Assembly: GCF_964355755.1 (NCBI RefSeq)
Contig: NC_092677.1
Location: 16,514,101 to 16,578,100 of the forward strand
DNA: 64,000 nucleotides
Direction: 5' to 3'
DNA from: Antedon mediterranea
Taxonomy: Eukaryota > Animalia > Echinodermata
Shown: positions 1-27,700 of the stretch, piece by piece
Layout: each line of letters opens with the position of its first letter
How positions within the stretch are numbered: the first letter of the stretch is position 1
Notes under the pieces: generated by a model
The model's input: the letters and a program-made list of their open reading frames with translations, nothing else
What the model was told of the DNA's origin: nothing
The model's database searches: none
Translations under genes and position numbers: made by a program

Positions 1-32
1 ATTGCAGCTGTAAATATTATGGAGTATGAATT

Positions 33-177
33 AAGCTCTGTCTACACTTTCAAACTACTGTAGTTTGACAACAAAATTATGATGTGCCCAAATATGGTAG
101 TGATACCCAAATATGGTATTGATATGTCATCATGTCCATATATTGGCACATCACATCTTTTGTCAAATAAAGCTTTA
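33..177. mobile_element. MITE family A (PIF/Harbinger-like), degenerate copy
   Basis: Begins AAGCTCTGTTCTACACTTTCAAAC and carries internal CCCAAATATGGTAGTGAT repeats shared with the copies at 2913, 43580, 49747 and 54468. Confidence 0.7.
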
Positions 178-339
178 GAGTGTGTTATCGTCCTTTCATT
201 CAAACTGCATATAAAAATACTTTGCCATAATGTGTGGCTATTCACTGAAACCTTACACATTATAACTTCCCAATCTCAGGCACCAGAGTAAATATCATAT
301 ATCATAAAGATGACAATTATGATTTCCTTGTGATCTGCT

Positions 340-735
340 CGTGATACTGACTTGATCATAAGTAAATCCTAATACTGATAATATTTACTGTAGTTTTTTT
401 GCAAGGCTTTAGTTAGTGTTCTTGCTCATAAGCAGATCATGAGTAAATCCTAATAAGCCTACTGCTCAATATGTTAGTTACTGGGATTGGAAGATTAACT
501 GTAAGGTTTCAGCTTAGTGAAAGCATATGTTTATTTCTCACGAGAAGATCATGAGCAAATCCTAATAATGATCAATATTTACTGTAATTATTGGGTTTCA
601 GTTAGTGAAGACATGTTCTAAATCCTAATAGGTCTACTGATCAATATTGTATTTACAGTAGTTAATGGTAGATATGTGTAAGGTTTCAAGTTTTGTGAAG
701 ACATGTGCTTGAGCATGATTAGATCATGAGCAAGT
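340..735. repeat. Degenerate tandem repeat
   Basis: GATCATGAG(T/C)AAATCCTAATA, TGATCAATATTTACTGTA and AAGGTTTCAG..AGTGAAG blocks each recur about four times. Confidence 0.6.
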
Positions 736-1164
736 TAAGATAAAAAAAATAGCTCATGTGATTGTAAAAATATAGTAGTGTAGTACTGTAGTACCTTTGA
801 ATAGAATTGTAATACTAGTTGAATTTGATTGAAAAGAAGGAGACTCGAAAGAATGAAATTCTGGACTAATTTTCAATCTTTTATTGTCCTGTGTTTTATA
901 TGAATGTAACACACATACATTATTTATACACAGTATATGTTATTTCTGTAATCATTGATGTCAATAAAAGAGCCAAATGTTGCAATAGACAGTTTTTGTA
1001 AGCTTTTCTGGTCAGTGCATATATACATATATATATATATACATATACATATATATATACAATTTTTGTTAAAAATTACACAAATTTTATTCATTATTTA
1101 AACTGCATGATACTATACAGTATATAAAAATATCAAAATGTAAATAGTACTATGTTATTACAGT

Positions 1165-1381
1165 ATTATTTCTTTATACTGGGTGACATCTTCAGTCAAA
1201 GACGGTTCTCCCAGTCAGGCTGTTTAAAGTGCACATGAGCTAGTGTACACTGGCCCTACGATTTATAGTCCTTATCCGAAAAGACCAGACCCATAGAGCG
1301 AGTAATTACAGTTCCATTGTCTTAAATAAATAATGGCTACATATAAATCGAACGATTGATTGATTAACCGCTCGGCCACTA
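1165..1381 (-). mobile_element. tRNA-derived SINE remnant with Deu-like core
   Basis: Minus strand shows box A AGTGGCCGAGCGG, a GTTCGATT box B remnant, then GTCTTTTCGGATAAGGACTATAAATCGTAGG, resembling the conserved DeuSINE domain (recalled, not searched). Confidence 0.55.
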
Positions 1382-1862
1382 ACTACAGTATATGGTTATA
1401 TATATAAATATAAAAATATTTTAGTAGGAATGTATACATATAGCAAAATTTCAATATATTATTTATACATTTTTGTTCTAATTTTAAAGCTTAACTAATA
1501 GGAGGAAAGTACTCAAATAAAAACAATTAATCTTTAGTTAGACCGGCGTTCTGCAAACTTTTAATTATCTTGGCTCAAAGTTTGCAGAAAGTCGAGTTAA
1601 GCATCAATGAAATCTATATTTATATATGTCTAAAAATTATATTTGCCCAAAAAAAGAATTACAGCAACTCTGAATTAAACACAACAGAAGGAAACTAAAA
1701 AGAAAGTAAAAAGGCCACCAGAAAGATAAAAATATAACTGGATAAACCAAATAAAAAAAGATTTAAAAGACTTTAGTACAATATCAAACCATCCTGCCCA
1801 AAATAGACAAATATGGGAAAAAATCCTGGAAAGCGTAATGTCTGAGAGAAAGTGTTAGAAAG

Positions 1863-1986
1863 TCACACTAAATAAGGTGTGTCTATAACTGAGGCTCCGA
1901 CTCCTACACCGCCCTCATCTACACCATTTGGTTTTGTTCTTACTAAATGTCCTGCAAAGTCGTTCATTACAGCATTTTTTTTGTCA
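1863..1986 (-). CDS. GSS: Extra GSS-like terminal exon B, a candidate alternative last exon of copy 1
   Basis: 124-nt exon with a poly-T/CTAG acceptor like exon A, and the same length and phase. Translates as (S)[40 protein letters not shown]. No other GSS exons were seen between 1987 and 5385. Confidence 0.8.
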
Positions 1987-2912
1987 CTAGAAAAAAAATA
2001 ATAATTTAGAGTTAAAAAAATGTTAGATTATGGCATTTATATTAGAGAAATATTTTTTTTCAAATAATTATGTCCAATGCATACACACAAAACAACTAAG
2101 GCAATTTGCTGTTATCTGTAAATATTATAACATGGAATGGAACATAAACTAAACAGCACTACATACATACAGAAATATTTGTTCAAATATGTCCCATGCA
2201 TACACTACAAAACACAATACAAACAAACAAGGAAGTCAGTATAGTAAGAGTGTAAGCTTGATTCTCCACTTTGATGCAATGCAATGATGTAGGCGCAATA
2301 CAATGATGTAGGCGCAATACAAGTGAGTTGACCAATCATTGTGTTGTGGTCAAATTACTTGATTTTTTAAATAGAATGCAACACACAGTAAATTACAGAA
2401 TCTGTAAATCAAAGTCTCTTGCATACACTATTGAAACTTGCTAGGAAGCAAATGAACTATAAAAAATCTAAAACCTATGGGCGGGCTTTTGCTGATTTTC
2501 TCATGCTTTGACACCACAGGAGCAAATACAGAATAGTTTAAACAGTGCTAACATAAAAAATATTAATATTAGTCAGGGTGGATGAGCACATGTCAATGAG
2601 TGCACCCTGGACCCACCGCGACCCTCTGCATTCTCCCCTGAACGATGTCATATCAAGATTGTTATTTAGTTGCCGCTTTTTTTTTTCTTTGCAAATGAAA
2701 TTTAAAATTTTTTTCAGTGTTGCCATTTTAGCTGCCAAGGCCATTTTGAACCAGTTTTTCTTGCCAGCAGGTCCTATAGCACTGAAAAGCAATATCCCTT
2801 GATGAATGTTGATAATAGCATTGATTAATGGTTATGAAATATATGTCATGCATACAAATTTGATGATGCAACATGTGACATGACAAAAGCATATAGTACA
2901 TACTAAACTATA

Positions 2913-3055
2913 AGCTCTGTCTAAACTATCAAACTTTATGTGACAATGTGATATGCCCATATATAGATGTGATGATGTCATATCACTACCATATTTTTTC
3001 ACCACCAGATTAAGGCACATCACACTCAAACTAGTTTGATAGTGTAGACAGAGCT
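2913..3055. mobile_element. MITE family A (PIF/Harbinger-like)
   Basis: TIRs AGCTCTGTCTAAACTATCAAAC and GTTTGATAGTGTAGACAGAGCT in a TAA/TTA context. Confidence 0.8.
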
Positions 3056-3873
3056 TAATAGTAACCGGTCATACCAAAAATTCTCCCAGGAGGCCTTGTA
3101 TCGCCTGGTAGGGTTGTATGATACAGAATGATATAAAGTACATGTTATTATCATGCCCTATGGGTAACTTATATATTTTTTTTCAAAAACAAGTTAAAAT
3201 AATATAGTTCAACTTTTCATTCATCACAACGTGTTCAATGCAGTGCACAAATCATCACTTATCACAGAGGGATTTTTGGAATAAACCTAATCAGTATTTT
3301 CACATTAAAAATGTATAAAACACTGTACAAATAAATATCACAATAACATTTATATCAAAAAACCCTACAGGCCCTAGTATGCCCAGTATGACCAAGCTCA
3401 TACTAACTAACCATTGAACAATCCAACACTTGACTTTACTTGGTGGTAGTATCCATTGTACACTCGTAACACAGAAATTCAAACACACAAACCGAGACGG
3501 TGTCCAGATTAATATTAATTTTTATTAATTCTATGGCAGTGACCCTTTCATTTAAATTAAGTGCTGTATCTCCACATTCGACAATATTTTCCACGTATCA
3601 TTATGAAAATTCCATAATACAGCATCTCATGTGTGTCACATGTGGTGCCTGTATCATGTACTGTAAAGTTAGGTTTAGTGTTAGGAATTATGGTCTTTGA
3701 TTCTAGGCGATACATGTGAAACACATGTGATACTGTATTACAGAATTTAGATAAAGATACTGGAGAATCTAGGTACACTGACTGTGACAGTACCGAGGAA
3801 TGTGTTCAGCACAATTATTCTATCAACCTTCATAAATAATTATTTTTACATTATATTTATTTGTATCTTCTTG

Positions 3874-4284
3874 CAAAGAACTTATAACACAAGAATCTCC
3901 TGTTCGTCCGAAGCGCGTAACAATTTCAAAAGGCATTGTGGGATAGAATAGAGCTATGGGTGGCGCCATTGTGAGCCATGGAGTAGGGCGCCCGCATCAA
4001 ATTAGAAAGTCAAAATCATAGAGGGGATCTGCTAATGCTCTAGGGGGGGATAGAGTAATTGACTGAGGAGTAGGGCGCCCGCATCAAATTAGAAAGTCAA
4101 AATCAAAGAGGGGATCTGCTAATACTCTAGGGGGGGTAGAGTAATTGACTTCCTAGTTTGGAGGGGGCGCTGCTCCATGCTGTGAAATGGCGTCGCCCAG
4201 TTTGACCTTTTAACCCTGTACTTCCGATACTGTGTTTTGAATGCAAATTGAAGAACAGGAGATTCTTGTGTTATAAGTTCTTTG
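3874..4284. mobile_element. MITE with 32-bp perfect TIRs (P-element-like termini)
   Basis: TIR CAAAGAACTTATAACACAAGAATCTCCTGTTC at both ends. Flanks CTTCTTG and CTTCTTA form a 7-bp TSD with one mismatch. An internal duplication of about 87 bp spans 3980-4150. Confidence 0.8.
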
Positions 4285-4319
4285 CTTCTTATCTATATAT
4301 CTATATTTATTTTTAAAAA

Positions 4320-4641
4320 TCCATTTTGGTCCAATCCGTTTGGTAAAGATATTCTGGCTTCTAATAGATTCAGGGATATGTTACCGTCGTACAAATCCGA
4401 TAGACTCAGTACTAGATCTCTCAGAAGTTATGCAGGCAATGGCTTGGAGAGGCGTAGGTGTAGGACTGAAAGACTAAACAAGTCAACAATACCGTACCTA
4501 GCTAGAATCTTGTAACTTTTTAGGTTTACTTGTAATTTGTGTTTTTCATATTTGTATTTTGATGGAATACTTTTGTAAACATTTTCAGCTTTTGCTGCTG
4601 GTGTGGAAGTTGTTTTAAACCATAAATAAATAAATAATAAA
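4320..4641 (+). mobile_element. LINE 3' end remnant (CR1/L2 group)
   Basis: Frame ends CRTERLNKSTIPYLARIL*, typical of a LINE ORF2 C-terminus, followed by a 3' UTR and an (AATA)n tail. Confidence 0.6.
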
Positions 4642-5385
4642 CCTGGATCTGTAATTAAATTAAAAGATTATTAGTGTTGACTTAGACTTGCCACAAGTCT
4701 GTAGTTACTTTTCTTTATGTTAGCCCACAAGTCATTGTTTCCAATATTACGTGAATTATCACCTAGAACCTAGAAAACAGCGGACTGTATTAAATTTCTA
4801 ATCTCATTTGTTAATAATGATTATCAAGAATTTACCAAAAAGTATTTCTTAAAAAAACAACTTTCCAAAAAGGTTGGAAAGACAATTAACTATAAAAAAA
4901 TATTTTACTATTAAAAATAATTTTTGCATAAAAAAGTTATTTTGGCATTTAAAATATTATGAGTAATCAAAAACAACCTCTATAAATACACAGGTACCTG
5001 TATTTCCAATATTGGTATATATTACTGTATTCACTTATTAAAATAATATTTATTTCTAACAAAAAAATAATAATAATAAAATATTACATATTTCATTTTA
5101 AAAATCAATAAAAGGTTTAGGAGACCAACAATCTTTGAACATTTTCATGAAATTTCTGCTCGAATAATTAAGATATTATTAACAAAATCTTAATAAAAAA
5201 TCCTTTCCCACTCTTAGTAATGTTAATTACCTCCTACATAATCAAATATATTTGCCTGTGAGTCTGACCAAAGCTAAAAACAACGTTTATTAGTACAAAT
5301 AAATGGAATATTAGTACACTTTGGTTATTTTACTCAAGGCATGTATTAATTCCCCCTCTAACTATTAAATGTTACAAAACCATAT

Positions 5386-8300
5386 TCATATCAAGAAAGG
5401 TGTATCAAGTGCCGAGGCCCCCGCAGCGACACCGCCCTCATCGACTCCATTGACTTTAGTTCGTACTAAATGTCCTGAATACTCGTTCAGAACAACATCA
5501 TTTTTGTCACTAGAAAAAGAAAAGTGAAATAGATACAAAAATGGGTTAACCATAGGATTGTGAAGTAGTATTCGCTGTAATTAGCAATTATTCTAACATC
5601 ACTGTTATTTGGAGTGGCACTGTCTTAAACGCTCAACACACAATTTTAGCAACCTCAAGTACAACTTAGCAATCAGAAAAACAAATGAATTCTATAATAT
5701 CAACAACATTCCAAATTTATGACTTAACTGAACTACTCATTCAAACTCAAAGATAGTTATATATAAATATTATATAAAAATCACCAGCGCTGGGCGTACT
5801 TTCACATCAAGTATGAATTCAGTTATCTGGTGTCAAGGTTATTCATGTTTACTGTTGATTGGTCAAAAGGTAAAAAATTGTACGATTTTAAGAAACAAAT
5901 GGCTTCTTAATCCATCGCTCCGAATTAGGAGCCCGAATCAGTTATGGATTCAAATCATATGATTTTGGTGTAAACCAATGAACCCGTTTTCCCACAATAC
6001 TTTTCTCAGGGCACCAGACCGAATTTGGTCATGATGTGAAAGCAGCTTTACACCATACTGTATCTCTCCATCGCTGATAACACATCACTGTAAAACCAAA
6101 ACTGAAGGCAAATATTACTGATTATGGTTATTTATGCTGTTAAAATATTCTATATAATCCCTAGTTGCCTCAACGAATGTGAAGGGAAGAGTTGCCAATA
6201 TTATCAATTAATGTATTGTATATTTATTTAAAACAAATCTGAGTTTAATAATTTGCTCACCTAACCAGTGCTCCAAACATGCCAAACTCTGAGACCATAT
6301 TCTGTAGTTCCGGCAGTTCTGGTGACGACACTACTTTGTAGCCTGGGACAGTGACTGGGAATATTCTATCCATCAGGATATATGCATTTCTTTCTGATGT
6401 GTTCTGAATTCCCAGAAGTTTGGTGCGAATGTCAACTCCATAGATATTATTTCCTAAAATAATACCAACACAATTTAGTAAAGCTCATTTAGAGAAAATT
6501 GAATGCTGAACTTGCACCATTTAGATGTTTCAATGGCAAAAACTACATTTAAAAAAGAGTAAAATTAGTTAATTTTGTTTATCTTAATCTTCTTGGTTAA
6601 AAATTGATGGAATAATAACAAAATAGCAAAAAACTGATTTCAAATAATTAATCAACTGGGAATTAAACTAGATTTTATAAACTACGTTTCACAAGGCTCA
6701 AGTGGTGGATCTGTTTTTGGCCAATGAGAAAAGTTGTGGAGATGTAGAACTGCTTTCACAAAGGAAAAGATAGGTATAAGTTATGTCATCCACAACAGCT
6801 ACAAATCCAATGTTATTAATTCTGTATACAAATAACTGTTCTCTCTTTAGAAAGATATTGCAAACAAAAGTTGCTTTAGTCTCTTACCCCCTCCTTCCTT
6901 GTTGGGTTTCATCACAAATTTTTCTGGTGAGGCGATTGCCATTGCGATGGCCTTGTCACCTTCAGCACCCTAAAAGAATTTGACATTTAAAATACTAACT
7001 TTATAGCACTATTCTGTACTTTTTAAGGCAAATTGTTGATGAAAGATGGGAGGTACATTATGTACAATAGGGATGGAATGGTGGAATTGTCAGGAATCAA
7101 AACACAATGTGAGGGAAGGCAATAGGAAGGTTCCAAGGCCTGAATCCGTTGTCTATATTCCTGGACAAGTATAATTAAAATTGCCTATATATAAATATTA
7201 AACTTGAAGGTGAACTTCAATAGAATCAAAAGAACATTCCTAAATTAATTGCTGTTAAAATTTGTATTAACTTGTGGCAATGATATGAAAGTTTTATTTA
7301 TTTATTTATTTTATTCATTTCCTCCTAAACTGTTCGTCCTAAAGACCCATTCAGACAACAAACAGAAACAAATTTAAAAACCAATGACAACGATAAAAGA
7401 CAACCCAGAAAACCACAACTAACTCTTAGCCCAATTACAGGACTTGGCACCAATAAATGAAAGGTTTGTGTACAAATGTTTATTATTTTCCCTCTGTAAA
7501 GTGGTTATCCATAGACGTAATTATGAGGTATATTACGGTACAGTACTTACAATATCAAGAGAGTATTGGCCAGTGAATGTTGCCCTGATTGCCGCCACTT
7601 TATCTGGATTTGATATGAACCTTTCAACCATCCCTGGCTTAGCTATCGCTTGTTGAACTTTCTTAGTTCCAGCTAAATGTAAAGAAACGTTTGGACAACA
7701 TATTGCACGAGACCTCGCTGCCAACAGTACAGCATTCCACTCCTGCATGAATTAAATATTCTACATCAATAAAATGTGGAATCTATTTGTAAATCAATCC
7801 ATACACAATATCTACAAACTATGGAAAGATTAGACTCTGTCTAGGTAATGTTGATAAAAGATGGTGGTAATTAAAGATTAGAAACAAAATAGGAAAAAAA
7901 GATGAGTTTCGAAAAACCTGGCGTAATGTTATAAGAACCGGAGCACTGACCAATTAGCCATATGACTTGATTTATGAAGGAGCGATGTTATTACTAGTTA
8001 AGTCAAATATTACACACCCTCAATTAGGCCGTACAGTAAAGGTAAAGGTGAGTCCCGTGTTCAATCTGAACGTGGGGGAATGAGCTGTTAGGAACTCATT
8101 GTACTAAGCCTCGGCATTAGGGTGGCCAGTTCCTTTCCACGCCGCCTTTTTTCTCCCTAGTATTTTCAACTAGGTACTTAATTACAGCTGAGTGGACTGG
8201 GAGTTGTCGGAAATTGAACCCAGGTCTATCTGTATGACAGTCAAGTGTCCTAACCACTCGGCTTTCCAACCACTTTACCGTAGAGTAGTGTCTGGATTGG

Positions 8301-11300
8301 AGATGCCAAGCGTAGATGCAGCAAATTAAAAAAAAAAGATATGCCTGTTGCATATTCTATGATTTAAATATACATTTAATACATACCGTCTCAGACTTAA
8401 AATGTGAAGGAATGTAACCATCTCTGTAGTAAACTATGGCAACTTCAGTACCATCACTAATTTTAGGGGAAAAAAAAAAATGTAAAACTAAGAAACTGAA
8501 CAAAGTACTGGGCACTCTTTAATATTCAGCCCATATTGAGCATAGATAACGTAACTGATATCAATAATTAAATCTTTTTCTTGATATGGCATGGTCTGAT
8601 GTTATAATAATTAATTTATAAATATTTGCAAATTAAAAATTCAGGGTGGATTACAATAAAAAAAGAAAAAAGACATTAAAATACAAAACAAGTTACAAGT
8701 TACTCTAAATATTCCATAAGTATGGTATTGTGTATTTTCTTCATCTCTCAGTATGACACCTACACCTCAACAAACAATTAGTTGCACTACGTCTGAGAGA
8801 TCTAGTAGTACTGGTTCTATCAGATTTATATGGCAGTAACGTATGCCTGAATTTAGTAGAAGCCAAGATAAATTTACCAAATGCTAAAGCTTTCTTTACA
8901 TGTACTGGTATTGGGAGAGTTGACTGTATTTCTAAAACTATCTGTGCTAAAGTCCATTACATGTATAACATTAGGGACTTTACGAAACATGACAGTTAGG
9001 GGAGGACTTCTTGTGTTCGCTAGAGTGTAAAATTATTTCTAATCGTTCCTCGTAAACGGGAAAATGGCAACTTTATCGTCCTCAAAAAGACGACAGAATT
9101 TCACACTAAGCTCTGCTTAATTTGTTAAGGTTCGTGCATAAATTATTCATGAGCACCGTCCTGTGGCTTCCTGTCCTGTTTCTTAAAATTGACTTGTATA
9201 GGATTTGTCATATTTATATATACATACTATACAGTACTTACACTATTAAGCGCCTATCATCTGACAGTTTTCCTTTTGAACCAATGTCCAATAGGGTAAT
9301 TCTCTTTACTGGAATGTCCAAATTGATTTTCTTAACTTCAAACTCTAAAAGTCTTTGGTCAAATACATTTCTTTCTGTAGTTGAGACAACAAAGACGATA
9401 GCTGCCCTGCATTTAGATGAAATATACAGCATTAGGAACCAAAACAAAACGTCATTTTTCATAATTTACTATAAATCGAAATAGAAGTTCAGACAGGTGG
9501 GAAAAAAGATTTAATGTCACAGACACCTATTAACACCTCCTCCAGTTCCGGCTCTAACGCGGCAAATACAATGGCGTCAAAATGTTTCGATTTCATGACA
9601 CACATGCAGCTCACGCCAATCCTCTTACTTGATATGGTCGTAGCTCCTTGATGAGTCATGAAAATGCTAATGCTGTATGCGCAATTTGACGCAAGCCTGA
9701 ACTGGATTCAGACCCGGAGTAGGTGTGAAAAAAACTTTAAAGCCCTGGACCCGTCACATATGAAACTTACTACAGAAATTTTACTACTCAGACTGCTTCA
9801 GCAGTGAATCTGTTGCCTAATTACATATGGAATACCTGGATACACACTCACTATATTTACTGAGCGTGAAAACTTAGAAAGACTGTTTGAACATAATATT
9901 AAAAATAATAATGCACATACTTGGGTGTGTCGTAAACTTCCCATGCTTTTACAAATGCTTTTGAGTACTTTTCTATGTGATTATTTGTCGGCAGTGACTT
10001 TTCTACATCACATCGTCCACCAAGAAGTTGGGTAGTGTATCTATAAATAAAATAGCATTTTGTGATAGTGATTACTTATAGGTCATCCACGTAGTCATAG
10101 TGGAGGTACCAAGAGCCAAGGTGATGCTATCAAAAGGTAACAAGGTTTGCATAGTATGACAATTTTGTAGATAAACAGAAAAACACAATGATGAGAGGCA
10201 TGTTTTTTTTGTTCCGAGATGTCCAGAGATGTTAATGTGTGCACATGTATTGACCTACAATTAAAGTAACCAATGTAATCGATTTATATAGATGAGACCC
10301 CCTAAGTACTAAAGTTAAATTTGTTGAGACCCACTAACCTACTTTTATTTACCTATGTACTAGAGTTAAATTTGTTGTGAGACCCAATAAGCTACTTTTA
10401 TTTACATATGTACTAGAGTTAAATTTGTTGCTACTTTTATTTACCTATGTACTAGAGTTAAATTTGTTGTGACAGCCCCCAAGCTACTTGCTATAGTGTT
10501 TATCTCAACCATCTTTGGCAGCATCTCATCTGTCGATCCATCCAACAGGTAATCTGATCTTAGAAGTGCTAAAACGCCGGCCTAGAAACAAAAACACACT
10601 TTTAGGTCCCTGGCATTTGAATTGTCTTCTGCATAATTATCATTTTTACTGTACAGTAAAATGTTACAATTGCAATACATTCTTATAATTGTAATCATTG
10701 TTATAATTATCAGAATCACTTTTGATACCATCATCATCATGTATTTTAACTGAAAAATTAAAATCAGTAATACTTTAGTCTTCTAAAGCCTACAATAGCA
10801 AACTTCACAAAACTCATGTTTAAAAACTCAGAGTTTGCTACATTTTGGAGAAATGTCAGGTTTATAATATATATATACATATAATGAGACATTATATAGC
10901 GCTATTTCGTGAAGATCAGAGCGCTTTGAGTGTTAGTTGACTATTAAAATTATCTAGAAAGGCTAACCAAAGGCAAGAAATAGGCTAACAAAAGACAACT
11001 CGTTAATGACAATAAAAAAAATAAAACAAAGATGATTCAAACACCACCCCTATCTACACAATTAAGTTTAAAAGTCCAGTTCCTGGAGGTTGCCACTTTG
11101 CTTACCTCACATAACTACACAACTGTCATTTCAAACCTTAGGAAGAAGCTGTAAAGCACCTACCTTTTGCAAATTAGTTATCTACAGCTTAAAGATTTGT
11201 CATTTAGTTCCCGGTCTTCAACCCGTCCACAGCGCTCTCGCTGCAAAGAAGTTGGGAGCATCCGCAAAGCCGCTGGAGCATGCGCAAAGCATTGTTGTTA

Positions 11301-12092
11301 TGCAGTCATTATGGGCAAGCACTATAATATGGTTGATTGATAGGGCACTTACTTCATCATGTGACTCACAATTGTCCAATCAAATGACTGGAATCTCTTT
11401 AGGTGTTATATAATCTACACTAGCAAACTTTGGCAACTTGTTATTACCAAACTTGTTGTTTGCTAAAGTTTGCAAAGTACATGCTACTGTAGACTAAGCT
11501 TACCAGATGGGTAAAGCAGCCTCAATATCTGTGTACTTACATCAGCAATACCTTCTTCTAATATTTTTTCCAATATCTTCAACAGCCTGCCAGTGAAATC
11601 GTCAGATACTGCTGCTCTGAAACAATTTTCAATAAAAAAAAGATTCAGTATTGATTATAGTCCGGTTGAATAAATAACACAACCGCATACATTCAGTATG
11701 AATCATGGTGTCCCAAAGGAGGGGTTCTACTTTACTTAAGACATATGGATCAGCTAGCTGGTTTACAAACGTGTCCTGTTCAACAAGAAAGAAATATTGT
11801 TTTGTGATTCTTACGATTTCAATGTTTCTCGTATAAAATCATAGTCTTTTGAAATAAGATACAACAGCTCATTAATGTACATTTGCCCGTCTGCAAGTTG
11901 GTGAAAATATTTCCTTGGTATCGGTGCTGGCAGAAGAGCATGTGGCCCACACATCACAGTATCTGAAGAAGTTGGATTCTCAAAGGTCCGAAAAACGAAA
12001 CCATGTGAGACAGCGCAGTCTTTTGATTGGTTGACAGCATCTGACAGCAGACTATCAGATAGAGGAAGTTTAACAGGAGGATCCAATTCCAT
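5386..12092 (-). CDS. GSS: Glutathione synthetase-like ATP-grasp ligase, copy 1, with proximal last exon A (about 478 aa)
   Basis: Ten GT-AG exons join in frame: 11815-12092, 11541-11616, 10445-10581, 9921-10040, 9242-9406, 8387-8456, 7551-7742, 6888-6969, 6261-6453, 5386-5509. Eukaryotic GSS motifs are present: [59 protein letters not shown] and GGVAAG...DTPF. Confidence 0.93.
8036..8270 (-). mobile_element. tRNA-derived SINE with (ACCTTT)n tail
   Basis: Minus strand has AGCCGAGTGGTTAGG (box A), GGGTTCAATTTCC (box B), a CCAGTCCACTCAGCTGTAATTAAGTACC core and an ACCTTTACCTTT tail. Confidence 0.75.
10301..10470 (-). repeat. Tandem copies of the GSS copy 1 coding-exon-3 end plus splice donor
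   Basis: CTACTTTTATTTAC(C/A)TATGTACTAGAGTTAAATTTGTTG occurs three times, plus a partial fourth copy. Confidence 0.85.
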
Positions 12093-12629
12093 TTCTATTA
12101 CAGAATGAAGAATAAAAAAGTTAAATCATTTTTCTATATTAATTAAAATTTAAACAGTAGTGCTCTGTGTGCTTGTAAGCAACCTATTTCGAAAGATCTT
12201 TAAGAACATTAAAAATATCATTTCAAATCAGACACATTCCCACGCATTTAAACTTAAATTGAAAATACACCATAAAGTACTGAAATCAGTGGTTTATCTG
12301 TACATTTTATGTATAGTAATTCTAAAAAATATATATAAGTTAAATTAACCACTAATATGTTAATAACATCATCATAAAACCCTACCAGGTGATACTGGGC
12401 CTATCGCTGATACGCTTTTGCTATCGTAATTGGTTCTGGTCAATACTTGTTACATATATGAATGTTTTTTTAGGCCTAATGTATAATTTTTTTTTTCAAT
12501 TTATTTTACAGGTGATTGCAAGAAGTTTGTGAATGTGTGCCGAGACCTGTAAAATTTAAAAAAAAAACAATTTAAATATAAAAATATCCACACGGCAAAA
12601 GCATACCTTGCGCCATCAAATCGGTAAGT

Positions 12630-12875
12630 ATGTAAGCCAATGGGTACGAGTTAGCCAAAAAATGAGTACGAGTATAAGCCAAATAAGGGACCATGGGTAC
12701 GAGTAAGCCATGGAAATACTTACGTGTACGAGTTTGTATGGGTACGGATTGGTTTGGGTACGGGTTAGCCACAGTGGGTACGAGTTGACCAATTATTTGG
12801 GTACGACTCGAGTTAGCCAAGTTGGGTACGAGTTGGCATGATGGGTTCGTTTGGGTACGGTACGGGTTGCCCAGC
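12630..12875. repeat. GGGTACGAGTTAGCC short-repeat array, probably a subterminal arm of a DNA transposon
   Basis: About ten GGGTACG(AGTT) motifs in the same orientation. Confidence 0.6.
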
Positions 12876-12915
12876 ACCCAACAGATTAGTAGCAGGCTAG
12901 GCCTTCTACTTTTAG

Positions 12916-13455
12916 GGGTGTCTGATCATTTCGGCCGCCAGTCATTTCGGCCGCCGGTTATGGAATTGCCAAATTCATGAAACGCCAAAAAGGACAAAAT
13001 ATGTATTGTTAATTTCGGCCGCCAGAATTGTAATTATTCTTGAATATGTATGACACGCCATGTGTGTTAAAATGTTAATATTTTACTAAATAGTGTATTA
13101 TTAAGCCGAATCGGCGGTCTTCAATTCCAGAAACAGCAAGCGATATTTATAGCGTGCACATTGCCATCACTACAGTGAATATTAATGATATTTTTTTAAT
13201 AAGAAGGAGTTGATGCTGAAGTTTTTAGCCCATTGCACAACTGATCTCTAGTTTAAATGATGATAATTCTCTGTGTGGCGTTCCATTTTTTTTCACTGTA
13301 ATTCTGTACAGTTATTTCTGGCTATTTCAATTTGGCGCGCCATACCTGGCGGCCGAAATGATCATGCCATATTTTGTCCTTTTTGGAGTTTCATGAATTT
13401 GGTCGTTCCATAACCGGCGGCCGAAATGATTGGCGGCCGAAATGCACTGTGACCC
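12916..13455. mobile_element. MITE with long (about 90-bp) imperfect TIRs
   Basis: Arms GGG...CATTTCGGCCGCC(x2)GGTTATGGAA...CAAATTCATGAAAC.CCAAAAAGGACAAAATATG are mirrored at the other end. TTTTAG is directly repeated at 12910-12915 and 13456-13461. Confidence 0.85.
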
Positions 13456-13615
13456 TTTTAGGCGCCTAGGCTAGTTAGGCCTCTGGCCGGCAAAAGACTA
13501 GTCTGGGGCCAGCCTAGCCTAGCTAGGCGGCCCTAGAGGCTAGGTCTAGGCCTAGGCTAGGCCTCTAGTAGGCCTAGACTATATTAGGGCGCTATAGTAC
13601 GTAGGCTTTACTTAC

Positions 13616-13740
13616 TTCTTTTTAAGGCACAGAGCCTACTATAAACATATAATAGCCTTACTTAAAAAATAAATATAAAACTCTGCAGAGTCATGTGTTT
13701 TTTTTTTATTGTTATTAATGTAGCGCCCTCTTCAGTAAGT
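13616..13740 (-). promoter_or_regulatory. Probable non-coding first exon and promoter of GSS copy 1
   Basis: An acceptor lies 2 nt before the ATG, so an upstream exon is required. A GTAAGT donor sits at 13615-13610, followed by a TAGGCCTA-rich tract. A similar donor for copy 2 lies at 20287-20282. Confidence 0.45.
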
Positions 13741-14603
13741 AAACTTTTTTAATACAATAATTTTCTATTATTATTTTCGTATACTATTATATCTTGACAC
13801 AGATAATATATATATATATATAATTACATACTGCAATAAATCGTAATTTTCACTACGATGAAATCTTAAAATAAACAAAATGACACTTTGCATAAAACTG
13901 AAAGTAAAGTTTAGTCTCAGCTTCAATATTATGTGAAATAGGCTTATTGGTTAACTTTATCTTTTTGGAAAATCTTTTATTCCAAATACGGATGATCATT
14001 AACTTTAATTTCTGTAAAATTCTAGGCCCTATTCTAGTAATGATTAAACGTTTTTATTTATTATTTAAAGAATATTATATTGTTTTACGGTAACGTGAGC
14101 CTATTGTTTGAAAGTCTTTTTAGGCACTATATCATTTAATATTTTAAACATTTTAAATAACATGTTAGTAACAGGTTTCACACGTAATGCACCTAGAAAA
14201 TATTGTTTAACTATAACAAGAAACTATTTATTGATTGGATCATGCAAAACTTGAATATATTAGTTAATTATAATAATTATTATAATAATTTTTTACTAAA
14301 TGAAAATACAACATGCTAACATTGAGGAGGGGTTAATGTTAACTATACTCAAAAACTCTGACTTCATTTCTGGCTGTTTTACACTTTATCGTTTTGATGA
14401 TTTATCTTGTTGCTTTTCTTTTTTATTTCTGTTGAGCTGAGCTGATTTCCACAGCATTGCCATGAATAATATTCTAATTAAATATATACGTATTTGTTTT
14501 AGTTGAATAGTTTTGATACCGGGTAAGCCTACTCTTACAGATTATTATGTAGTAACATTCAGGAAAAACAAAAGAAACCCGTTACTTAGATTTACGATTT
14601 GAT

Positions 14604-17600
14604 TTAAAATTCAACCAAGAAAGGCGTATCTGAAATCGAGACTCCGACCATTATACCACCCTCATCCACACCGTTGGGTTTCGTTCGTACTAAATGTCCT
14701 GCAAACTCATTCAATACAACATCATTGCCATCACTATATAAAAATGACACATTTTTATTCATGTAAATCATCAAGAAACTATTGTAAAAAAACGTAGTTT
14801 TATTAGTATTACGTACATTTTCATGGATGATATAATTACGCAGATTTTCGTCATGGAGCTAAAGCTTGGTTCCAACTAGGATGCAACTCAAGGACGTAGA
14901 CGCAACGTAAGTGAGTTGACCAATCACAAGCGATGGATTATTCGAACTGTCGCTTGTCATTGGTCAACACATTTGCGTTGCGGTTACGCCATTGCTTTGC
15001 GTCCTAGTTGGAACCAAGCTTTAGTAATCGGTCAGAATGATGTTTGTTACGGTAGTGTGTACTTAGCATAGTATATATAGACATACAATTACTTTAGATT
15101 ATGGCAAAATCCGACCAACTACGTTTTATATTCCTTGTAAATAATATATACTGTAATAAAAAGAAATAAGCTGATGGTAATATTTCTCACCTAACCAGAG
15201 CTCCAAACATACCAAACTCTGAGACCATATTCTGTAGTTTCGGCAGTTCTGGTGATGACACTACTTTATAGCCTGGGACAGTGACCGGGAATATTCGATC
15301 CATCAGGATATATGCATTTCTTTCTGATGTGTTCTGAATTTCCAGGAGTTTGGTGCGAATGTCAACTCCATAGATATTATTTCCTAAAATAATACCAATA
15401 CAAAAAAACAAATGTCAGTTTTAGTTAGTTGAGGCTTATTCCTCACCAATGACAGAATGACTAACATATTGCAAAAGTGTGAAACTAGAATGTTAATCTT
15501 CTCAGATATTAAAATTCTTGATAAATTTTGTCAAATAAAATTAGCAAAATGTAATAAAGAGAAGTAGAGTGAATCAACATATCGGTATTTCCTTTTCTGA
15601 GACTATGTGGTTGTGATTAACGTAGTGACAACGCTTGGTCCTCCTCATGGACGCAACGCAAGCGGCTGGCTCAACGTGTCGACGACGCATACATGCCGTA
15701 ATAACATATTGCGTGGGTACCGACGACGTTTCCTAAACTTTTATTCAACACTCGTTTCTGCTTGGGCGTACGTTGCAATCGACGTGATGGTTCAACTTCT
15801 TGTCGTAAGAGGGGGATGGAAAAAATGATAGAACAGTATTTCTTCTACTAGTCGGAAACAAGCTTTATACAATTCCTAGTGGTCTCCACCCAACCACCAC
15901 ACCAATCTGTATAGACATTATCTTAGTTCACAGTAAAACGTATTTTACCTCCTCCTTCCTTGTTTGGCTTCATCACAAAGTTTTCTGGTGAATTAATCGC
16001 CATTGCGATTGCCTCATCGCCTTCAGCACCCTAGAAACAAATTGAAAGAACTACAAGAAACTGCAAGATAGTATCTTTATTGTATTATAACAAATTGCTG
16101 ATGTAGTATGAGAAAGGTATTATATGAAATGAGCAATAGTTGGGTAGAAAAGCGAAGACATGAGTTACAAAACCATCTTATTATCTTTTCGGAAAATGAC
16201 TAAACTACAATTAAATTCCTAAACAAAGCGGCTACTGCACATCACTCCATAGGCATAGCTAGCAACCATGTTGTAATTGTATTTCTATGTAATTATCCTT
16301 GCCAAAAGGTTATATGTCCAGTTTCGTTATCCGAATATAATCGCCGTCTTACTTTGAATAATTTTTAACAACATGGATCACGGTACTTACAATATCAAGA
16401 GAGTATTGGCCAGTGAATGTTGCCCTGATTGCCTTCACTTTATCTGGATTTGATATGAACCTTTCAACCATCCCTGGCTTAGCTATCACTTGTTGGACTT
16501 TCTTAGTTCCAGCTAGGTGTAACGAAACGTTTGGACAGCATATTGCACGAGACCTTGCAGCCATGAACACAGCATTCCACTCCTATATAAATTAAATATT
16601 ATTATTATTATTTATTTACAAAATACTGTACGTATTGTTTATGAATTAATTTAATAAAATGAATAATTATATACATACCATCTCAGACGTAAAATGGGAT
16701 GGAATGTAACCATCTCTGTAGTAAACTATGGCAACTTCAGTACTATCACTAATTATAAATTAGTAAAAGGAAATCAACAGTATTACTCTTTAAATATCGT
16801 TTAACCAGCCAATCAATGGTTATTACAATTAATCTATGTTGGTTCTTTAATAAAAATGGCAGCCATTTTTGTTATTGAAATTTGAAGTAGATAAACGTTT
16901 GTGGTTTTTCAAAATAAGCATTGGTTCAGGATTTAAATTTCTAGATTCAGATTGGTACATATTGATAGAGCAAAGAACAAAAAAAAATCTATATTCTAGT
17001 GCCATCTCGCAATAAGACATAAATTGATGATATAAGGATGTACCTACGCTGCTGATTGTCATATGTAAAAACTTTACTTTGGGTTTTGTTGAACGCTCGA
17101 TTTAGACATAAAATCAACAGGCAATGGGAACTTACAAGACAATGCGGATTGTTTTGCAATTGTCAGATTGTGGAAGTCTAAGCATATGTAAGGCGACAAT
17201 AATTACTTGCTTTGGCACTAAATTTTAACTCTGACACTTACACTATTAAGCGCCTATCGTCTGACAGTTTTCCTTTTGAACCAATGTCCAATAGTGTAAC
17301 TCTCTTTATTGGAATGTCCCAATTAATCTTCTTAATTCCAAACTCTATTAGTCGTTGGTCAAATATATTTCTTTCTGTACGTGATACAACGAAGATAATA
17401 GCTGCCCTGTTTTATACGAAATACACAGCATAAATTTTCAGTTTAAATAAAATTTAATTTAAATTTTAAAAAATAGAGAACGACAAAACACATTTAGCAA
17501 GAAGTAAAATGTTCTAACTAAATAGTACAGTGTTTTACTCGTAAATGCTAAAATTATAACTTGAAAGGTTGTTTATTGTTTTTCTTGAAATTATATCATC

Positions 17601-19492
17601 ATTTTCTTTTTCTTTTTACAAAACGAAAATAAAGCGAATTTAAAAGTTGACATACTTGGGTGTGCCGTAAATCTCCCATGCTTTTACAAATGCATTTGAA
17701 TACTTTTCTATGTTATTGTTTGTCGGCAGAGACTTTTCAACATCACATCGTCCACCGAGAAGTTGAGTAGTGTATCTATATATAAATTATTTATTTGCTA
17801 TTACTTTTGTGTTATATTTGTCTTTTCCCATTATTTTATTACTATTTCCCATGTTTAGTAGACTATAATTATTTGTGATGATTCTATTTTCTGAGGAGAA
17901 TACTCATTTACTTATGTACTGGAGTTAAATTTGACTGGATAGCCCCGGCGCCACTTGCAATAGTGTTTATCTCAACCATCTTTGGCAGCATCTCATCTGT
18001 TGATCCATCCAAAAAGTAATCTGATCTTAAAAGAGCTAACACTCCGGTCTAGAAAAAAAAAATTCTTTTAAATTATTATCATCTGCCATCATCATCACTA
18101 TTTCAGTTCTGAAGGTATTCCAATATTTAAACCTTTAAGCATTGTACTTCTCTAATTAATTTCTCGTAATTCACCTTCCCTGATTTACTCAACAAAATAC
18201 AATCTATTTATTCATTCTTTTCATACGCATTCAAGAGCGAGTACCTCGCCAATTACAGGATGGATCAACTATTTTAATAATTGATCTTGCTTGTTAAACT
18301 AAGTCTCATTTGATTATTAGGGAGTGGAGTTGAAAAAGTCGTGAGTTACATCCCTGGCCTGGGATTAGAAGGTACGTTAACGTTAAGTAGCTACAGCTCC
18401 ACTTCGTGCCTCACTATCAATAAAGCAAACTTCAATTTTGGCAAGACAATTTCCAAAAGTTCGACAAATCTAGTTTGCCAACTCGAGCAAACTCCGAGTT
18501 TGTCAAGTAAGGTTTGCTAGTGATGTACAGTTGACGAACTTCAGCAAACTGCAACAATCATACACATCTTTAGTTTGCAACTCGAGCAAACTCCGAGTTT
18601 GTCAAGTAAGGTTTGCTATTGATGTACAGTTGACGAACTTCAGCAAACTGCAGCAATCATACACATCTTTAGTTTACAACTCGAGCAAACTCCGAGTTTG
18701 TCAAGTAAGGTTTGCTATTGATGTACAGTTGCAATCATACACATCTTTAGTTTGCAACTCGAGCAAACGAGTTTATCAAGTAAGGTTTGCTTGTGATGTA
18801 CAGTTGACGAACTTCAGCAAACTGCAACAATCATACACATCTTTAGTTTTCAACTCGAGCAAACAAAAACGTATACTTACACCAGCAATATCTTCTTTTA
18901 ATGTTGTTTCTAATATCTTCAACAGCCTGCCAGTGAAATTGTCAGATACTGTTGCTCTGAAACAATTTAACATGAAAATATTCGATTCAACGTCAATCGT
19001 ATCTATTTTTAGATATTTTTAGTCGCGTGGACGCGACTCTATAGCTCACTATGTCGGTCGGTCTGTCGGTCTGTCGGTCTGTCTGTCGGTCCGGTATCAC
19101 TATGCGTTTTAGCACGCAACTTATGGCTGTTGGCCTTGTTTAGTACTTGAGAGCTATGTGTTAAGTTTTATACTCATATTTTGAGGACAAATATTATTTT
19201 TATGTAATTCTTACGATTTTAATGTTTCTCGTATAAAATCATAGTCTTTTGAAATAAGATACAACAGCTCATTAATGTATATTTGAACTTGTGCAAGTTG
19301 GTGAAAATATTTCCTTGGTATCGGGGCTGGCAGAAGAGCATGTGGTCCACACATCACAATATCTGAAGAAGTAGGATTCTCAATGGTCCGAAAAACGAAA
19401 CCATGTAAGACAGCGCAGTCTTTTGATTGATTGTTAGCGTCCGACAGCAGACTATCAGGTAGAGGAAGTTTAACAGGAGAATCCAATTCCAT
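14604..19492 (-). CDS. GSS: Glutathione synthetase-like ATP-grasp ligase, copy 2 (about 480 aa)
   Basis: Exons 19215-19492, 18881-18956, 17912-18048, 17656-17775, 17242-17406, 16679-16748, 16391-16582, 15949-16030, 15191-15383, 14604-14733. Exon lengths and phases match copy 1 except the last exon (6 nt longer), and the frame is intact. C-terminus is GHLVRTKPNGVDEGGIMVGVSISDTPFLVEF*. Confidence 0.93.
14863..15020. mobile_element. MITE family B (PIF/Harbinger-like)
   Basis: TIRs AGCTTGGTTCCAACTAGGA and TCCTAGTTGGAACCAAGCT with TAA/TTA flanks. Related copies lie near 2254-2450 and 25615-25749. Confidence 0.8.
18470..18863. repeat. Tandem repeat, unit about 99 bp, about 4 copies
   Basis: Unit CTCGAGCAAACTCCGAGTTTGTCAAGTAAGGTTTGCT...TACACATCTTTAGTTTGCAA, with an internal deletion in one copy. 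Intronic in GSS copy 2. Confidence 0.9.
19016..19141 (+). mobile_element. Helentron-associated (HINE/DINE-1-like) non-autonomous element
   Basis: Starts in a T-run with the hairpin AGTCGCGT-GG-ACGCGACT, continues into a (GTCG/GTCT)n microsatellite and ends CTTGTT. Confidence 0.7.
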
Positions 19493-20629
19493 TGCTAAAG
19501 CAGAAAAATGAAACACCCCTCTCAATAAGAAAAGCACTCTATCTTAAACTATTGATTAATAATCGGGCAAACATGACACATTCTTGTTAAAACAGAAACC
19601 ATTTATACAAGAGTGCGGAATAAGGCCGAAATAAGTTTGGAGACAAACTTAAATGTTCTTATGGTCATCCCACTTTCTTCCACTAAGTCTTTTTACATTA
19701 GCCATTAATTGTTCAAAACGATATTGCGCAATGTGTTCAGTTTCAACAATTGGAACATAACAATATGTTTACGACGATGATTTTGTTTAAATTATAAATA
19801 TAACATCATATGTTACTGATTAATGGTTATGCTAATTAAAGTGAACTCATTGAACTGAAACGATTGTAACTGCTATACCATTGAATGTGTTTTATGTTTA
19901 TGTGACCAATGCCACTTATAAAAGTGTGTTAGTAAACATTGTGCAAAAGTGTAGCATGCAAGTGACATTTCACTAATAAATAAAATATTAAAATAATAAT
20001 TTAACCTTACTTAGATATGTGTATTTATTTATAATATTATATTTACAATTAATTCACATATACTAATATATTAAAGTTGAAATATGAAAATATCATGCTG
20101 CAGTAGTGTAAAGCTAATCCTACACTTACCGATACACACTGTAGATACTTAATTTCAATTGTAATGTACATGGGCATAAAGGTTTGTAGACTCTGTTATT
20201 CAATTAGTTGGAGAGGGCAGAAGCTTTGTCGACAATTAGATTGCTAAATATACTATTTTAACAAACTATTTCTACAACTGTACTTACTTTCTTTATTTAA
20301 AAAGCGCCCATTCAGAGGAATATAATATGCCATATTTGAAGATGTGCCCCGAACTCAAAAAAGTTCCTAAAAGAAACAAACAAAATACTAATTCAATATA
20401 CACAAAGGTCCAGAGAAAAATGCTCCAGACGTAAGAGGCGCTTTCGTTTTATTCCATTCATGTAGACCTCTAGTTGTAATAGCATAATGAGGTTCCAACC
20501 GGTAGAAGCAGCATTTCATCTTAATTCTTTCTGATCTATACAGTATATCCCATTTTTAAATTAAATCTACTATTCATATCGGTTGTGTGTACAGCGTAGC
20601 TTCCTCCAAATTAACCATAATAATGACAT

Positions 20630-21720
20630 TGTTTATTTCTTCTTTATTTCATCTAACAGCGAAAAATCGCCAATAATAGGATGCATTAAAAATATTTATA
20701 TATAAATATATACATAAAAATAAAGAAAAATACAATATGAAACATACAAAAATGGCAAAATTATATCTAGATCTAAAAACAGTCAAAAATATTGTTAGTC
20801 TTATATTTGATAGAAATTGAATTGTAAAGCTTGAATAATTTTTCGAATAAAATATTTTCAGTTACGTTGATTCGACAATGGGCAAGGGAAGAAAGTGTAA
20901 TTTTAAGAGAGAAAAATTAAAATTTAAAAAAGGGAGTGAAAGCATTTGAAGAGAATATTCAATTTGAAAAAAACTTCTCCAATTATGAAGCGGAGGAAGA
21001 TTGATTAGAAGACCAGAATTGTGGTTAATGAAATAAATAAATTTGGATTGAACACGTTCGATTCTATATGATTGAGAGATCGAAATATAATTATAAATTG
21101 TTGATGAAAAATATAAAAAATCAGTCGGACATGAAAATTGACTTCATCAAAGCTCTTCAGGATATTCCAAGATAAACGATCAAAAACATTGCATATAACA
21201 ACCTAATTAGTTCTAGAAAAATAAAAAATAGTCCTAAAGTATGACTATCACGAGCACAGGAATCAAAATAAAACTTAATATAAAGAGACTCCTGTGATCA
21301 GAATCAAAGAACAATTGTAACATTACAATTGTATAATTAGGCTAACATTAAGTATTACAAAGTACAAGATCTAAAATGTTATCCAAACGAGTATATAGAA
21401 AAATTATATTGCGAAAGGTTAAAATGATTAAAATTGATCAGAAAAACAAACATTTTAGTAGCAAAGTCGATTTATAAGTATGGCTACCGTCGTCAATTCA
21501 CTAAAAACCGAGCAGGTTAAAATCGCCAACTATAACTAATTATTTAGCCTTTGTGGATCAAATATTAGCTTAAAAGATTGATGAAGAAGCTGGACGTTGT
21601 TGTTTGGTGGTCTATAATGCAGTCCAATAATACACATTTTTCTGTGTATGAGGCCTTTAATTCAATCCACATAGTTTCACTGCCAGCATATTGAACCAGC
21701 CTAGTTCTAACCAGATTACT
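20630..21720 (-). mobile_element. Degenerate LINE with APE-type endonuclease remnant
   Basis: Frameshifted minus-strand translation gives ETMWIELK, IIGLHYRPPN, VIVGDFNL and DSDHR, the APE endonuclease motifs in the expected order. No reverse transcriptase domain was seen. Confidence 0.7.
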
Positions 21721-24758: not shown

Positions 24759-27700
24759 ATGTCAAGAAGAAGGTATGCTATAGTTGTATTATTATTTTGT
24801 ACACGTACATTCAGTATTTGGAAAGTGTGCATGAAAAAAATAGGAAACCCAAAAAGGTTGAAAACTTAAAAATTTACCTTAAAAAAAATGGCCTAAAAAG
24901 TACCCATTAAAGAAAATAACATCTTGGTATACAACTTTATAACTTCCCCTATCTCTCCCTCCCCTATTCCTTTCTCATACAGTATCTGTGAAACCAGTAT
25001 ATGTAATTGATAAGTAAATTTCTAGGCTCATTTTTATTTTAGTGGAAGATTGCAAGCAAAGCAGAGGGTAGTGCAAGCTCCCTGTACCATCACAGAAGAA
25101 GACTTTAAGATCTGCACTAGAAAGCGCAAGGCTAAAGACATGATTGGAGAGGTGAGATATACTAATAATTAGTTGGTATGCCTTATTACTTGAAGTCTGT
25201 TTTTTGCTTAGACTAGCCAAATCTAAATTTATACCACCCAAATGTTTTATAAGATTTAGTGTCAGCTTAGGACCAGGACCAGTCAGCTTGGTGTATTCTT
25301 GTGCGCTCATCCCATGAAACCGCTTTACAAATTTCTAATGCTGACCTTATCCAACACCCACAAAATTACTTTATTTGATTGTTAGGCAAATTTTATTCAC
25401 AAGTTTAATGATTTAATTTTGTTTTAAGGCGGATATCAGAAGTATGGAAATTCAGAAGAGAAGACAGCAATTTCAAATACAGGTATAAATAATATTTTGT
25501 TTGTAATATCAACTTCCATAATTTACTTATTGTTCAAGCACTAACCTGCCCTTTGACATCGGGTTACAAAACGGTCAATCACCAGATCATACTACAGGTA
25601 GAACACCTATTAAAAGCTTGGTTCCAACTAGGTCGAAATGCAAATATGCTAGCGCAATTCAAATAAATTGACCAATCACTTTGGCTTATCTGAACTGCAT
25701 TTGCATTGCGGTTACATTGGCGCATTGCGTCCAAGTGGGAATTAAGCTTTAGGGAATACCTACAAAACCCAACAAAGTGTACCTTAATAGGGGTTTTCCT
25801 TAAATAGGAGTTTGTAATTATGTTGCACCTTGTTTTATTCGCTTCAAAAGAGGGTTCATACTGTAGTGTACTGTATATTAATCATTTAATTAATTTTTCA
25901 TTAGACTTGCTGGATCCCAATCTCCGAGACAACTGGTGTACCAACTAGTACAATCATCCCTGCGCAGTTTAACCCTAACCCACCTACAACACCGGAGTTT
26001 TGTGAGAAGAGCTCGATATTTCGTTTCAAGAACCTCTTCCCGACCCCATCTACGCTTAGGTCATCACCATTACCAACGTTAAACTGGGCGGATCATCAAG
26101 ATGTGTGGCGGTTCATGCTCGAGCAGGAAAACTCATACATGAATAAATGCGACGGGAACTACCTACATAAACACCCTAATCTAGAAACTCGTATGCGAGC
26201 TATATTATTAGATTGGTTAATAGAGGTATGACCATCGTTTGTCTGAATATTATTGAAATTATTAGAAATACAACTTCTCATTTTAAACAATTGCATAATA
26301 TTTTTGTTGGATTTTAAATTATTACATTTCGAATTAATCATGTTCAACATCAAGCCATCTGAAGTCAGGGAGGCATGCAATCAAGGGGATCCTAAATTTT
26401 GAAATTTGCTGTGCAAAAGATAGTACATTAGGTTAAGTTCTAGGCCCCACTATTTCAAAACAAAAGACACACATTTGGCACTGGGATATTTAGGCCTTAC
26501 TATAACTTAGCCTATAGAGGCATTTGTTAGTCATTGTATGCTGAACTATGGCAAACATGTACCCAAAATACAGTACCTCCACACATTTATTCCTGTTATT
26601 ATTTTCCTATATTCATCTATAGGTTAGTGAAGTTTACAAATTACACAGGGAAACCTATTACCTAGCTATGGACTTTATTGATAGGTTTTTATCGGTTAAG
26701 ACTAATATTCCAAAGAATAAACTGCAACTTATAGGAATCACAGCATTATTTGTTGCTGCCAAATTAGAGGTAAGATTTTCAATTTATATAGTCTTTACAC
26801 ACACTCGTTATCGAGCAGTCAAGCTTGAAAAACATCCAGATATGTTTTAGCTGGCTTTGCTTAAAAATATAACCTTCCATCTTTCACCTAATAAATTTAT
26901 TTACCACATTGCACATTCATTATTTGTATACCATTACACCATACACTCTCTCAAGAATCAGCTAACATTCTTCAGTAAATGAACGTGTGTGAACTGATAT
27001 TATGTTTCTATTATTGCAGGAAATCTATCCACCAAAACTTACAGAATTTGCGTATGTAACTGATGGTGCTTGTACAGATTCTGAAATACTAGACCAAGAA
27101 CTTGTAATGTTAAAGGTAAAGGGCTTGCATACTATTCTCTAACAGGTTTCTCCAATTAAAGACAGTTGTTCAGACCATGTGGGTCTGTTCTCTACATTCA
27201 GTATATTGTTCTGTACTACTATTTTTTTGCCCCATTAAAAACCCAGATCCAGTTCCTTACATTATATCTCATTTAATAACAGATGTAGGTAAAGACAATA
27301 AAGGCTCCTTCACGCTCTGCTATTTACCCTTGTTGGTTCCTACCCACCAAAGTTAGTGATGACCCACCCATGAAACCAACTTACCCTGCTAGTAACTAAG
27401 CCCCAACAGGGCCTAAAGAGAGCTTGGTAAGGGCCTAGGATCTACGTCTTTTGAATCCCACAAAATATTTCAAAGAATGAAGTAAGGAAGCCTGTCCCCA
27501 CATGTGCACAATGAATTAGCATGGAGGAAAAATAGGCTTTCAGCTAAACTAGACAAATAATGATGTATTTTTTATCATATAATTTGTATCTTCATTACAG
27601 GCCTTAAACTGGGAGTTAACTCCAGTTACAGCCAATGCCTGGCTGAACACTTATCTTCAATTGTGCAATGTAGATGAAATTATTCAAAATAATTCCAACT

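Follow-up and report, generated by a model that had tools for sequence, protein, structure and literature searches.

Isoforms A and B of insect laccase-2 differ by duplicated C-terminal exons. The two forms differ a few-fold in catalytic efficiency (PMC3313952). The alternative oxidase of oysters, likewise an invertebrate enzyme with a duplicated, alternatively spliced exon, has one variant that rises on air exposure (cited in PMC5829090). Among human tandem exon duplication-derived substitutions, 77 of 236 are C-terminal, e.g. in GNAO1 (PMC8373072). Almost all eukaryotes have a single glutathione synthetase (GSS) gene (PMC5919673), and the described acceptor shifts are, in the papers cited, those of plant paralogues: legume homoglutathione synthetases (soybean, 3KAJ/3KAL; Medicago) vary at two positions of the acceptor loop, with a change of acceptor (PMC3473041), and rice OsGS2 prefers serine (PMC6508825). 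In plant-parasitic nematodes, clades 1-3 comprise animal GSS duplicates with changed loop residues (PMC5919673). The subject here is a window of 64 kb from the crinoid Antedon mediterranea (contig NC_092677.1), the first 20 kb of which hold two tandem GSS genes on the minus strand. In copy 1 the donor at position 6261 is spliced to one or the other of two last exons (A and B) that are old duplicates, and isoform B is probably a glycine-using GSS whose Gly-Val loop alters its kinetics.

The locus resembles GNAO1 in that homologous 3′ coding exons are used one at a time and the C-terminus alone differs, but in Antedon a GSS gene is concerned, and catalytic residues and the substrate loop lie in the exchanged part. 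With the legume enzymes it shares the two variable loop positions; those enzymes and OsGS2 are, however, separate plant paralogues, whereas here one gene, splicing and a Gly-Val pair are involved. The nematode enzymes arose by whole-gene expansion, and their effectors diverge mainly in the gamma-glutamyl pocket (PMC5919673). Laccase-2 and the oyster oxidase are comparable as invertebrate enzymes with a splice choice between variants, although the enzymes are different. The class of mechanism, tandem-duplicated last exons, is known, and both isoforms are already in the automated annotation. No published GSS with duplicated alternative last exons was found among the matches listed in literature searches, from which supplements were excluded and most subscription papers were absent.

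Alternative last exons of GSS copy 1

Exons of copy 1 joined by coordinates gave exact translations of two NCBI isoforms, X1 (P0003, XP_071958071/72.1) with exon A and X2 (P0121, XP_071958074.1) with exon B; the latter had been regarded in the original prediction as an orphan exon, which it is not. Both proteins have 478 residues, are identical over 438 and differ at 14 of the last 40. The exchanged part thus comprises 40 residues and the stop, not the 41 residues first proposed, the split codon of Ser438 being common to both isoforms. The joined exons of copy 2 with its last exon C matched P0002 (XP_071958547.1) exactly from Met17. A stretch at 20286-20365 (minus strand) is, from a reading by eye, likely the first coding exon of copy 2 and fits the 16-residue N-terminal extension of P0002, which is absent from copy 1. 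No further Antedon GSS paralogues were found among the matches listed (120 of 1,192 proteins).

Exons A and B agree in length, phase, stop position and acceptor context, as had been noted: both have 124 nucleotides (nt) with TGA at the same codon, are preceded by a pyrimidine tract ending in CTAG and start with TGACAAAAA. The estimate of about 32 differing nucleotides proved exact (32 of 124), with no indel and no internal stop. There were 18 third-position changes; ten codons differ silently only and 14 with an amino-acid change. The suggested purifying selection was borne out, with a synonymous divergence (dS) of 1.04 and a nonsynonymous divergence (dN) of 0.19, giving a dN/dS of 0.19. The corresponding proportions of differing sites (pS and pN) were 0.56 and 0.17 (Fisher p = 1.8e-4), and pN reached or exceeded pS in 0 of 2000 bootstraps. 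No alignable flanks were found around A and B, flank alignment scores being at shuffle level.

Five sequencing runs match the region; none is recorded as RNA, and run X1 was deemed spliced from its junctions (15 of its 25 joints are listed, three of them exonic). In its contigs, 6261 is joined both to 1986 and to 5509, the two junctions named in the original prediction as the check to be made, with GT-AG ends that appear as CT..AC when read on the plus strand. A constitutive joint, 6888 to 6453, likewise showed GT-AG ends. Contig depth was 28.2 at the joint to B and 43 at the joint to A, and no ranking of the isoforms is drawn from these depths. At both alternative joints the upstream side measures 21 letters, below the 31-letter bridge threshold, because the contigs are built of 31-mers and the first 9 nt are common to A and B (30 - 9 = 21). 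The 21-mer occurs once in the window and has two mismatches to copy 2. Run X1 showed scattered differences from the window, nine of them in 543 nt of the exon B 3′ untranslated region (UTR), and therefore likely derives from another individual. Contigs of run X2 span 1742-2938 and 4587-6397 with zero differences; this run may be the source sample and would hence bear on the assembly only.

Misassembly, transcripts of copy 2 or a processed pseudogene are very improbable as sources of the B junction. The short upstream side and the unrecorded kind of run X1 would be compatible with an artefact, and the joints listed for DNA-like runs (15 of 598, none exonic, over the repeat-swamped stretch 900-20800) leave room for a joined form among the rest. 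However, the 21-mer has the length predicted and belongs to copy 1 alone, the ends are exactly GT-AG at both alternative junctions and one constitutive junction, run X2 contigs cross the two stretches unaltered, and isoform X2 is in the NCBI annotation. Given the junctions together with isoform X2, exon B is very probably used.

The acceptor of B scored 13.6 and that of A 9.2 with a matrix made from 17 acceptors of both GSS genes (range 7.7-15.9). The stronger acceptor fits a distal exon that would win in transcripts left uncleaved past A, and the exon used might depend on whether cleavage downstream of exon A or splicing onward to the more consensus-like acceptor of B comes first. Minus-strand AATAAA signals had been proposed to follow both exons; they are present at 5291 and 1091, but their frequency is not above chance, with 129 on the minus strand of the 64 kb (2.0 per kb) and nine within 1-6260. 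The exon A contig reaches 5195, about 90 nt beyond the AATAAA at 5291-5286, without stopping, and contigs cannot mark RNA ends. Unspliced run X1 contigs were observed in the spacer at 4584-4936, 4258-4613, 3034-3600 and 1960-2940, one of them crossing the B acceptor; these could stem from isoform B precursor or from an extended 3′ UTR in isoform A.

On the latter interpretation a proximal poly(A) site does not exist, the transcripts of both isoforms end past B, and A retains the 3.4-kb spacer and exon B as 3′ UTR, so that the choice is purely one of 3′ splice site. This is possible, though on balance doubtful. It agrees with the run of the exon A contig past the AATAAA, with the cover of much of the spacer and of the B acceptor by unspliced contigs, and with the background frequency of the motif. 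Against this, no cover was seen at 4937-5194, repeats in the spacer attract contigs from elsewhere, an unspliced isoform B precursor would yield identical contigs, and RNA ends are beyond what contigs can show.

The acceptor loop of isoforms A and B

The swap from A to B replaces Ala-Ala of the acceptor loop by Gly-Val; in the alignment this alanine-rich loop lies inside the exchanged stretch, as predicted. Antedon numbers exceed human numbers by four, R454/K456 corresponding to human R450/K452, and G466/V467 of isoform B to human A462/A463. The same two residues align with L487/P488 of soybean homoglutathione synthetase. Ten columns that are at least 97% conserved in 138 non-crinoid GSS and matched by A were all kept in B (human N442, G446, R450, T451, K452, G459, G460, G464, D469 and position 473), and at an eleventh column of this conservation, Leu449, each of the four crinoid tails has Val. 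Three of the 14 differences between A and B fall on columns at least 85% conserved (462, 463 and 468), the first two being Ala462/Ala463. Of the substrate-binding residues listed in PMC2845819, isoform B also keeps R125, S151, E214, N216, R267, R450 and the Gly-Gly that precedes the loop; at position S149 it has Ala, which is found in many animal GSS, and the gamma-glutamyl pocket is intact and common to both isoforms. Isoform B gave a full-length ATP-grasp GSS match to human GSS (2HGS; E = 2.8e-111). It is predicted to fold as a complete GSS, its modelled structure having a predicted local distance difference test score of 92.3 overall and 79 over residues 461-470, and a template modelling score of 0.92 to 2HGS. 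At the start of the glycine-rich loop (6888-6969 and 15949-16030, minus strand), all four crinoid GSS have KPNKE, and 133 of 136 others have KPQRE.

The Ala-Ala pair was present in 108 of 128 non-echinoderm entries versus 4 of 14 echinoderm entries, counted after two motif-less fragments had been dropped and with unnamed entries taken as non-echinoderm; the entries are not independent, many being from fish or insects. Acceptor loops of echinoderm GSS were unusually variable, including LAM, LMT, LTV, IGA and VGA (P0004, P0006, P0008, P0011 and P0056). The only GSS found for the crinoid Anneissia among the matches listed carries the Gly-Val pair, which argues that a GSS with this pair is able to produce glutathione, provided that Anneissia has no unannotated A-type exon. 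A search for other crinoid C-terminal fragments gave 13 proteins of 38-49% identity, none of them crinoid-like. A high level of glycine in echinoderm cells might relax the loop, but this proposal is not used as support. Urchin gonads were glycine-rich in one species and contained taurine, betaine and sarcosine in another, the cited passage being silent on crinoids (PMC12735097).

The glycyl carboxylate is held by main-chain amides of the loop, and Trypanosoma brucei glutathione synthetase has Val-Met there (PMC2845819). Clade 2 enzymes of nematodes, which are without the two alanines, still prefer glycine at a lower rate (PMC5919673) and would, by analogy, be the closest model for isoform B. 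Because of this mode of binding, the Clade 2 enzymes and the Gly-Val pair of Anneissia, a glycine-using isoform B with changed kinetics is the preferred reading. The two forms would then differ in glycine affinity, turnover or cooperativity; in the human enzyme the A-loop also influences cooperativity and glycine binding (10.64898/2026.06.09.730884). A/B heterodimers could form, since the enzyme is a dimer.

Several points weigh against this reading. The junctions derive from one run of one study in contig form, with the kind of run guessed as RNA and a short side of 21 letters, and comparable data may underlie the NCBI gene models. The acceptor matrix is a small one made for this purpose, and no proximal poly(A) site was seen in run X1 contigs, which cannot mark RNA ends. 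Gly-Val occurred in 0 of 128 non-echinoderm proteins, and the Anneissia protein cluster has one member, with no second isoform on record. Finally, fission yeast GSS given Leu-Pro gains serine use (PMC3473041), so that an altered acceptor is conceivable for isoform B as well.

It is accordingly to be considered, though unlikely, that isoform B has an altered acceptor preference and makes a glutathione homologue from gamma-Glu-Cys and beta-alanine, serine, alanine, taurine or similar, one gene yielding two thiols by exon choice. Exon B alters exactly the pair that aligns with soybean Leu487/Pro488, and changes of this pair shift acceptor use in the Medicago and fission yeast enzymes, Leu-Pro to Ala-Ala partly restoring glycine use in Medicago homoglutathione synthetase (PMC3473041). 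The pairs of A, B and C all differ (AA, GV, MV) and are distinct at a dS of about 1 versus 0.23 upstream, and the low share of Ala-Ala among the variable echinoderm loops points the same way. However, Gly-Val differs from Leu-Pro, enzymes without the alanines may still favour glycine, and the sole Anneissia GSS on record has Gly-Val. The yeast Leu-Pro enzyme was still 8.6-fold glycine-specific, and its use of beta-alanine required two more changes (PMC3473041). No report of such an echinoderm homologue was found among the matches listed in literature searches. Neither B (Gly-Val) nor C (Met-Val) has the Leu-Pro that marks homoglutathione synthetases and, judged by its sequence, the copy 1 product is not one.

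In copy 2 (17912-18048, minus strand), the gamma-glutamyl-binding Ser151 is Gly, as in a few other animal GSS. With this Gly and its Ile-Met-Val loop, copy 2 would be a stronger candidate than isoform B for altered substrate use.

Divergence of the GSS copies and features of the window

Over the 438 shared codons, copies 1 and 2 differ by a pS of 0.20 (dS 0.23). Exons A, B and C differ from one another by a pS of 0.52-0.57, and no upstream window of 40 codons was above 0.40; silent-site divergence of the last exons is about four times that of the shared upstream exons (p = 3.6e-5 for A vs C against upstream exons). The nine introns of the two copies gave alignment scores of 23-35, at or near shuffle level, beside exons about 90% identical, whereas for introns simulated at a dS of 0.23 the median score was 69-245, varying with the indel rate. 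By these comparisons the upstream exons look young, and the introns and last exons old. Most simply, the genes would have duplicated long ago, and exon-limited gene conversion would later have homogenised the upstream exons but spared the last exons. If three old last exons had been shared out between recent copies, this would explain the exons, but not the introns. Similarly, splice-form subfunctionalisation after gene duplication (PMC4417111) would account for C in copy 2 and A and B in copy 1, but in its plain form leaves the nine unalignable introns unexplained. A broader proposal, which appears quite unlikely, is that crinoids switch the GSS acceptor loop by splicing and so make a non-glycine glutathione homologue, comparable in an animal to the homoglutathione of plants. 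Three old loop variants (AA, GV, MV) would then have stayed distinct during homogenisation of the remaining parts of the duplicated gene.

Protein identity of the last exons was 65-72.5% among A, B and C and 67.5-75% to Anneissia, compared with 71-73% to Anneissia for the upstream part. A tree built from the last 41 residues placed A, B and C in one group with Anneissia (96/93), with no settled internal order, and B can therefore not be called the orthologue of the Anneissia exon. The crinoid stem branch was long.

Exon duplication, or whole-gene duplication with later loss, is a possible origin of B. The original prediction allowed that B might be a relic of a third copy; this may hold for its origin even if B is not dead. 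It is distinctly improbable that B, whether left over as the last exon of a deleted third copy or arisen by simple exon duplication, is spliced through its strong acceptor into isoforms that are interchangeable. Many loop sequences are tolerated in echinoderm GSS, the dN/dS of A and B averages their whole history and could predate capture, and Anneissia has no alternative isoform on record. On the other hand, no remnant of a third gene body or of other GSS exons was found between A and B (tblastn; local alignment at null level), and the exon is intact at a dS of about 1 although its flanks are unalignable. A dispensable exon would be expected to have decayed as these flanks did.

A palindromic element resembling a miniature inverted-repeat transposable element lies at 14859-15024, within the final intron of copy 2, and related pieces occur at 2295-2338 (upstream of B) and 25613-25679; its high contig depth indicates a genomic repeat. 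A 44-nt match upstream of B and C was dropped as a sign of shared ancestry, as it belongs to this repeated element, with another copy at 25613. An inverted repeat with 110-nt arms (12916-13455), likely a transposon remnant, lies between the GSS copies, and tandem arrays were observed at 42122-43696 (period 51 nt), 37198-37889 (34 nt) and 18479-18850 (99 nt).

Table 1. Coordinates of GSS features in the Antedon mediterranea window.
Feature	Position	Strand	Remarks
Alternative last exon A, GSS copy 1	5509-5386	-	40 residues + stop; loop EGG-VAA-G (common form); isoform X1; joint 6261 to 5509
Alternative last exon B, GSS copy 1	1986-1863	-	40 residues + stop; loop EGG-VGV-G; isoform X2; joint 6261 to 1986
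Penultimate coding exon common to both isoforms	6453-6261	-	Donor GTGAG after 6261 serves A and B
Eight upstream coding exons, GSS copy 1	6888..12092	-	12092-11815, 11616-11541, 10581-10445, 10040-9921, 9406-9242, 8456-8387, 7742-7551, 6969-6888; GT donors throughout
3′ UTR past exon A stop, transcribed	5195..5385	-	Run X1 contig 5195-5509; includes candidate AATAAA 5291-5286
3′ UTR past exon B	1086..1862	-	Run X1 cover reaches at least 1223; candidate AATAAA 1091-1086
A-B spacer	1987..5385	-	3,399 nt; partly under unspliced run X1 contigs
Last exon C, GSS copy 2, homologous to A and B	14733-14604	-	Loop EGG-IMV-G; two extra residues ahead of stop
Nine upstream coding exons, GSS copy 2	15191..19492	-	Protein 88.6% identical to copy 1; introns unalignable

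Meaning of the paired isoforms

If isoform B keeps glycine, the gene is a tidy but unremarkable example of an enzyme tuned through duplicated last exons; if it uses another amino acid, this would point to an undescribed animal thiol. The gene is a natural paired experiment, with two proteins alike over 438 residues and different in the acceptor loop, which makes both the role of Ala-Ala in the animal enzyme and the variability of the loop in echinoderms directly testable.

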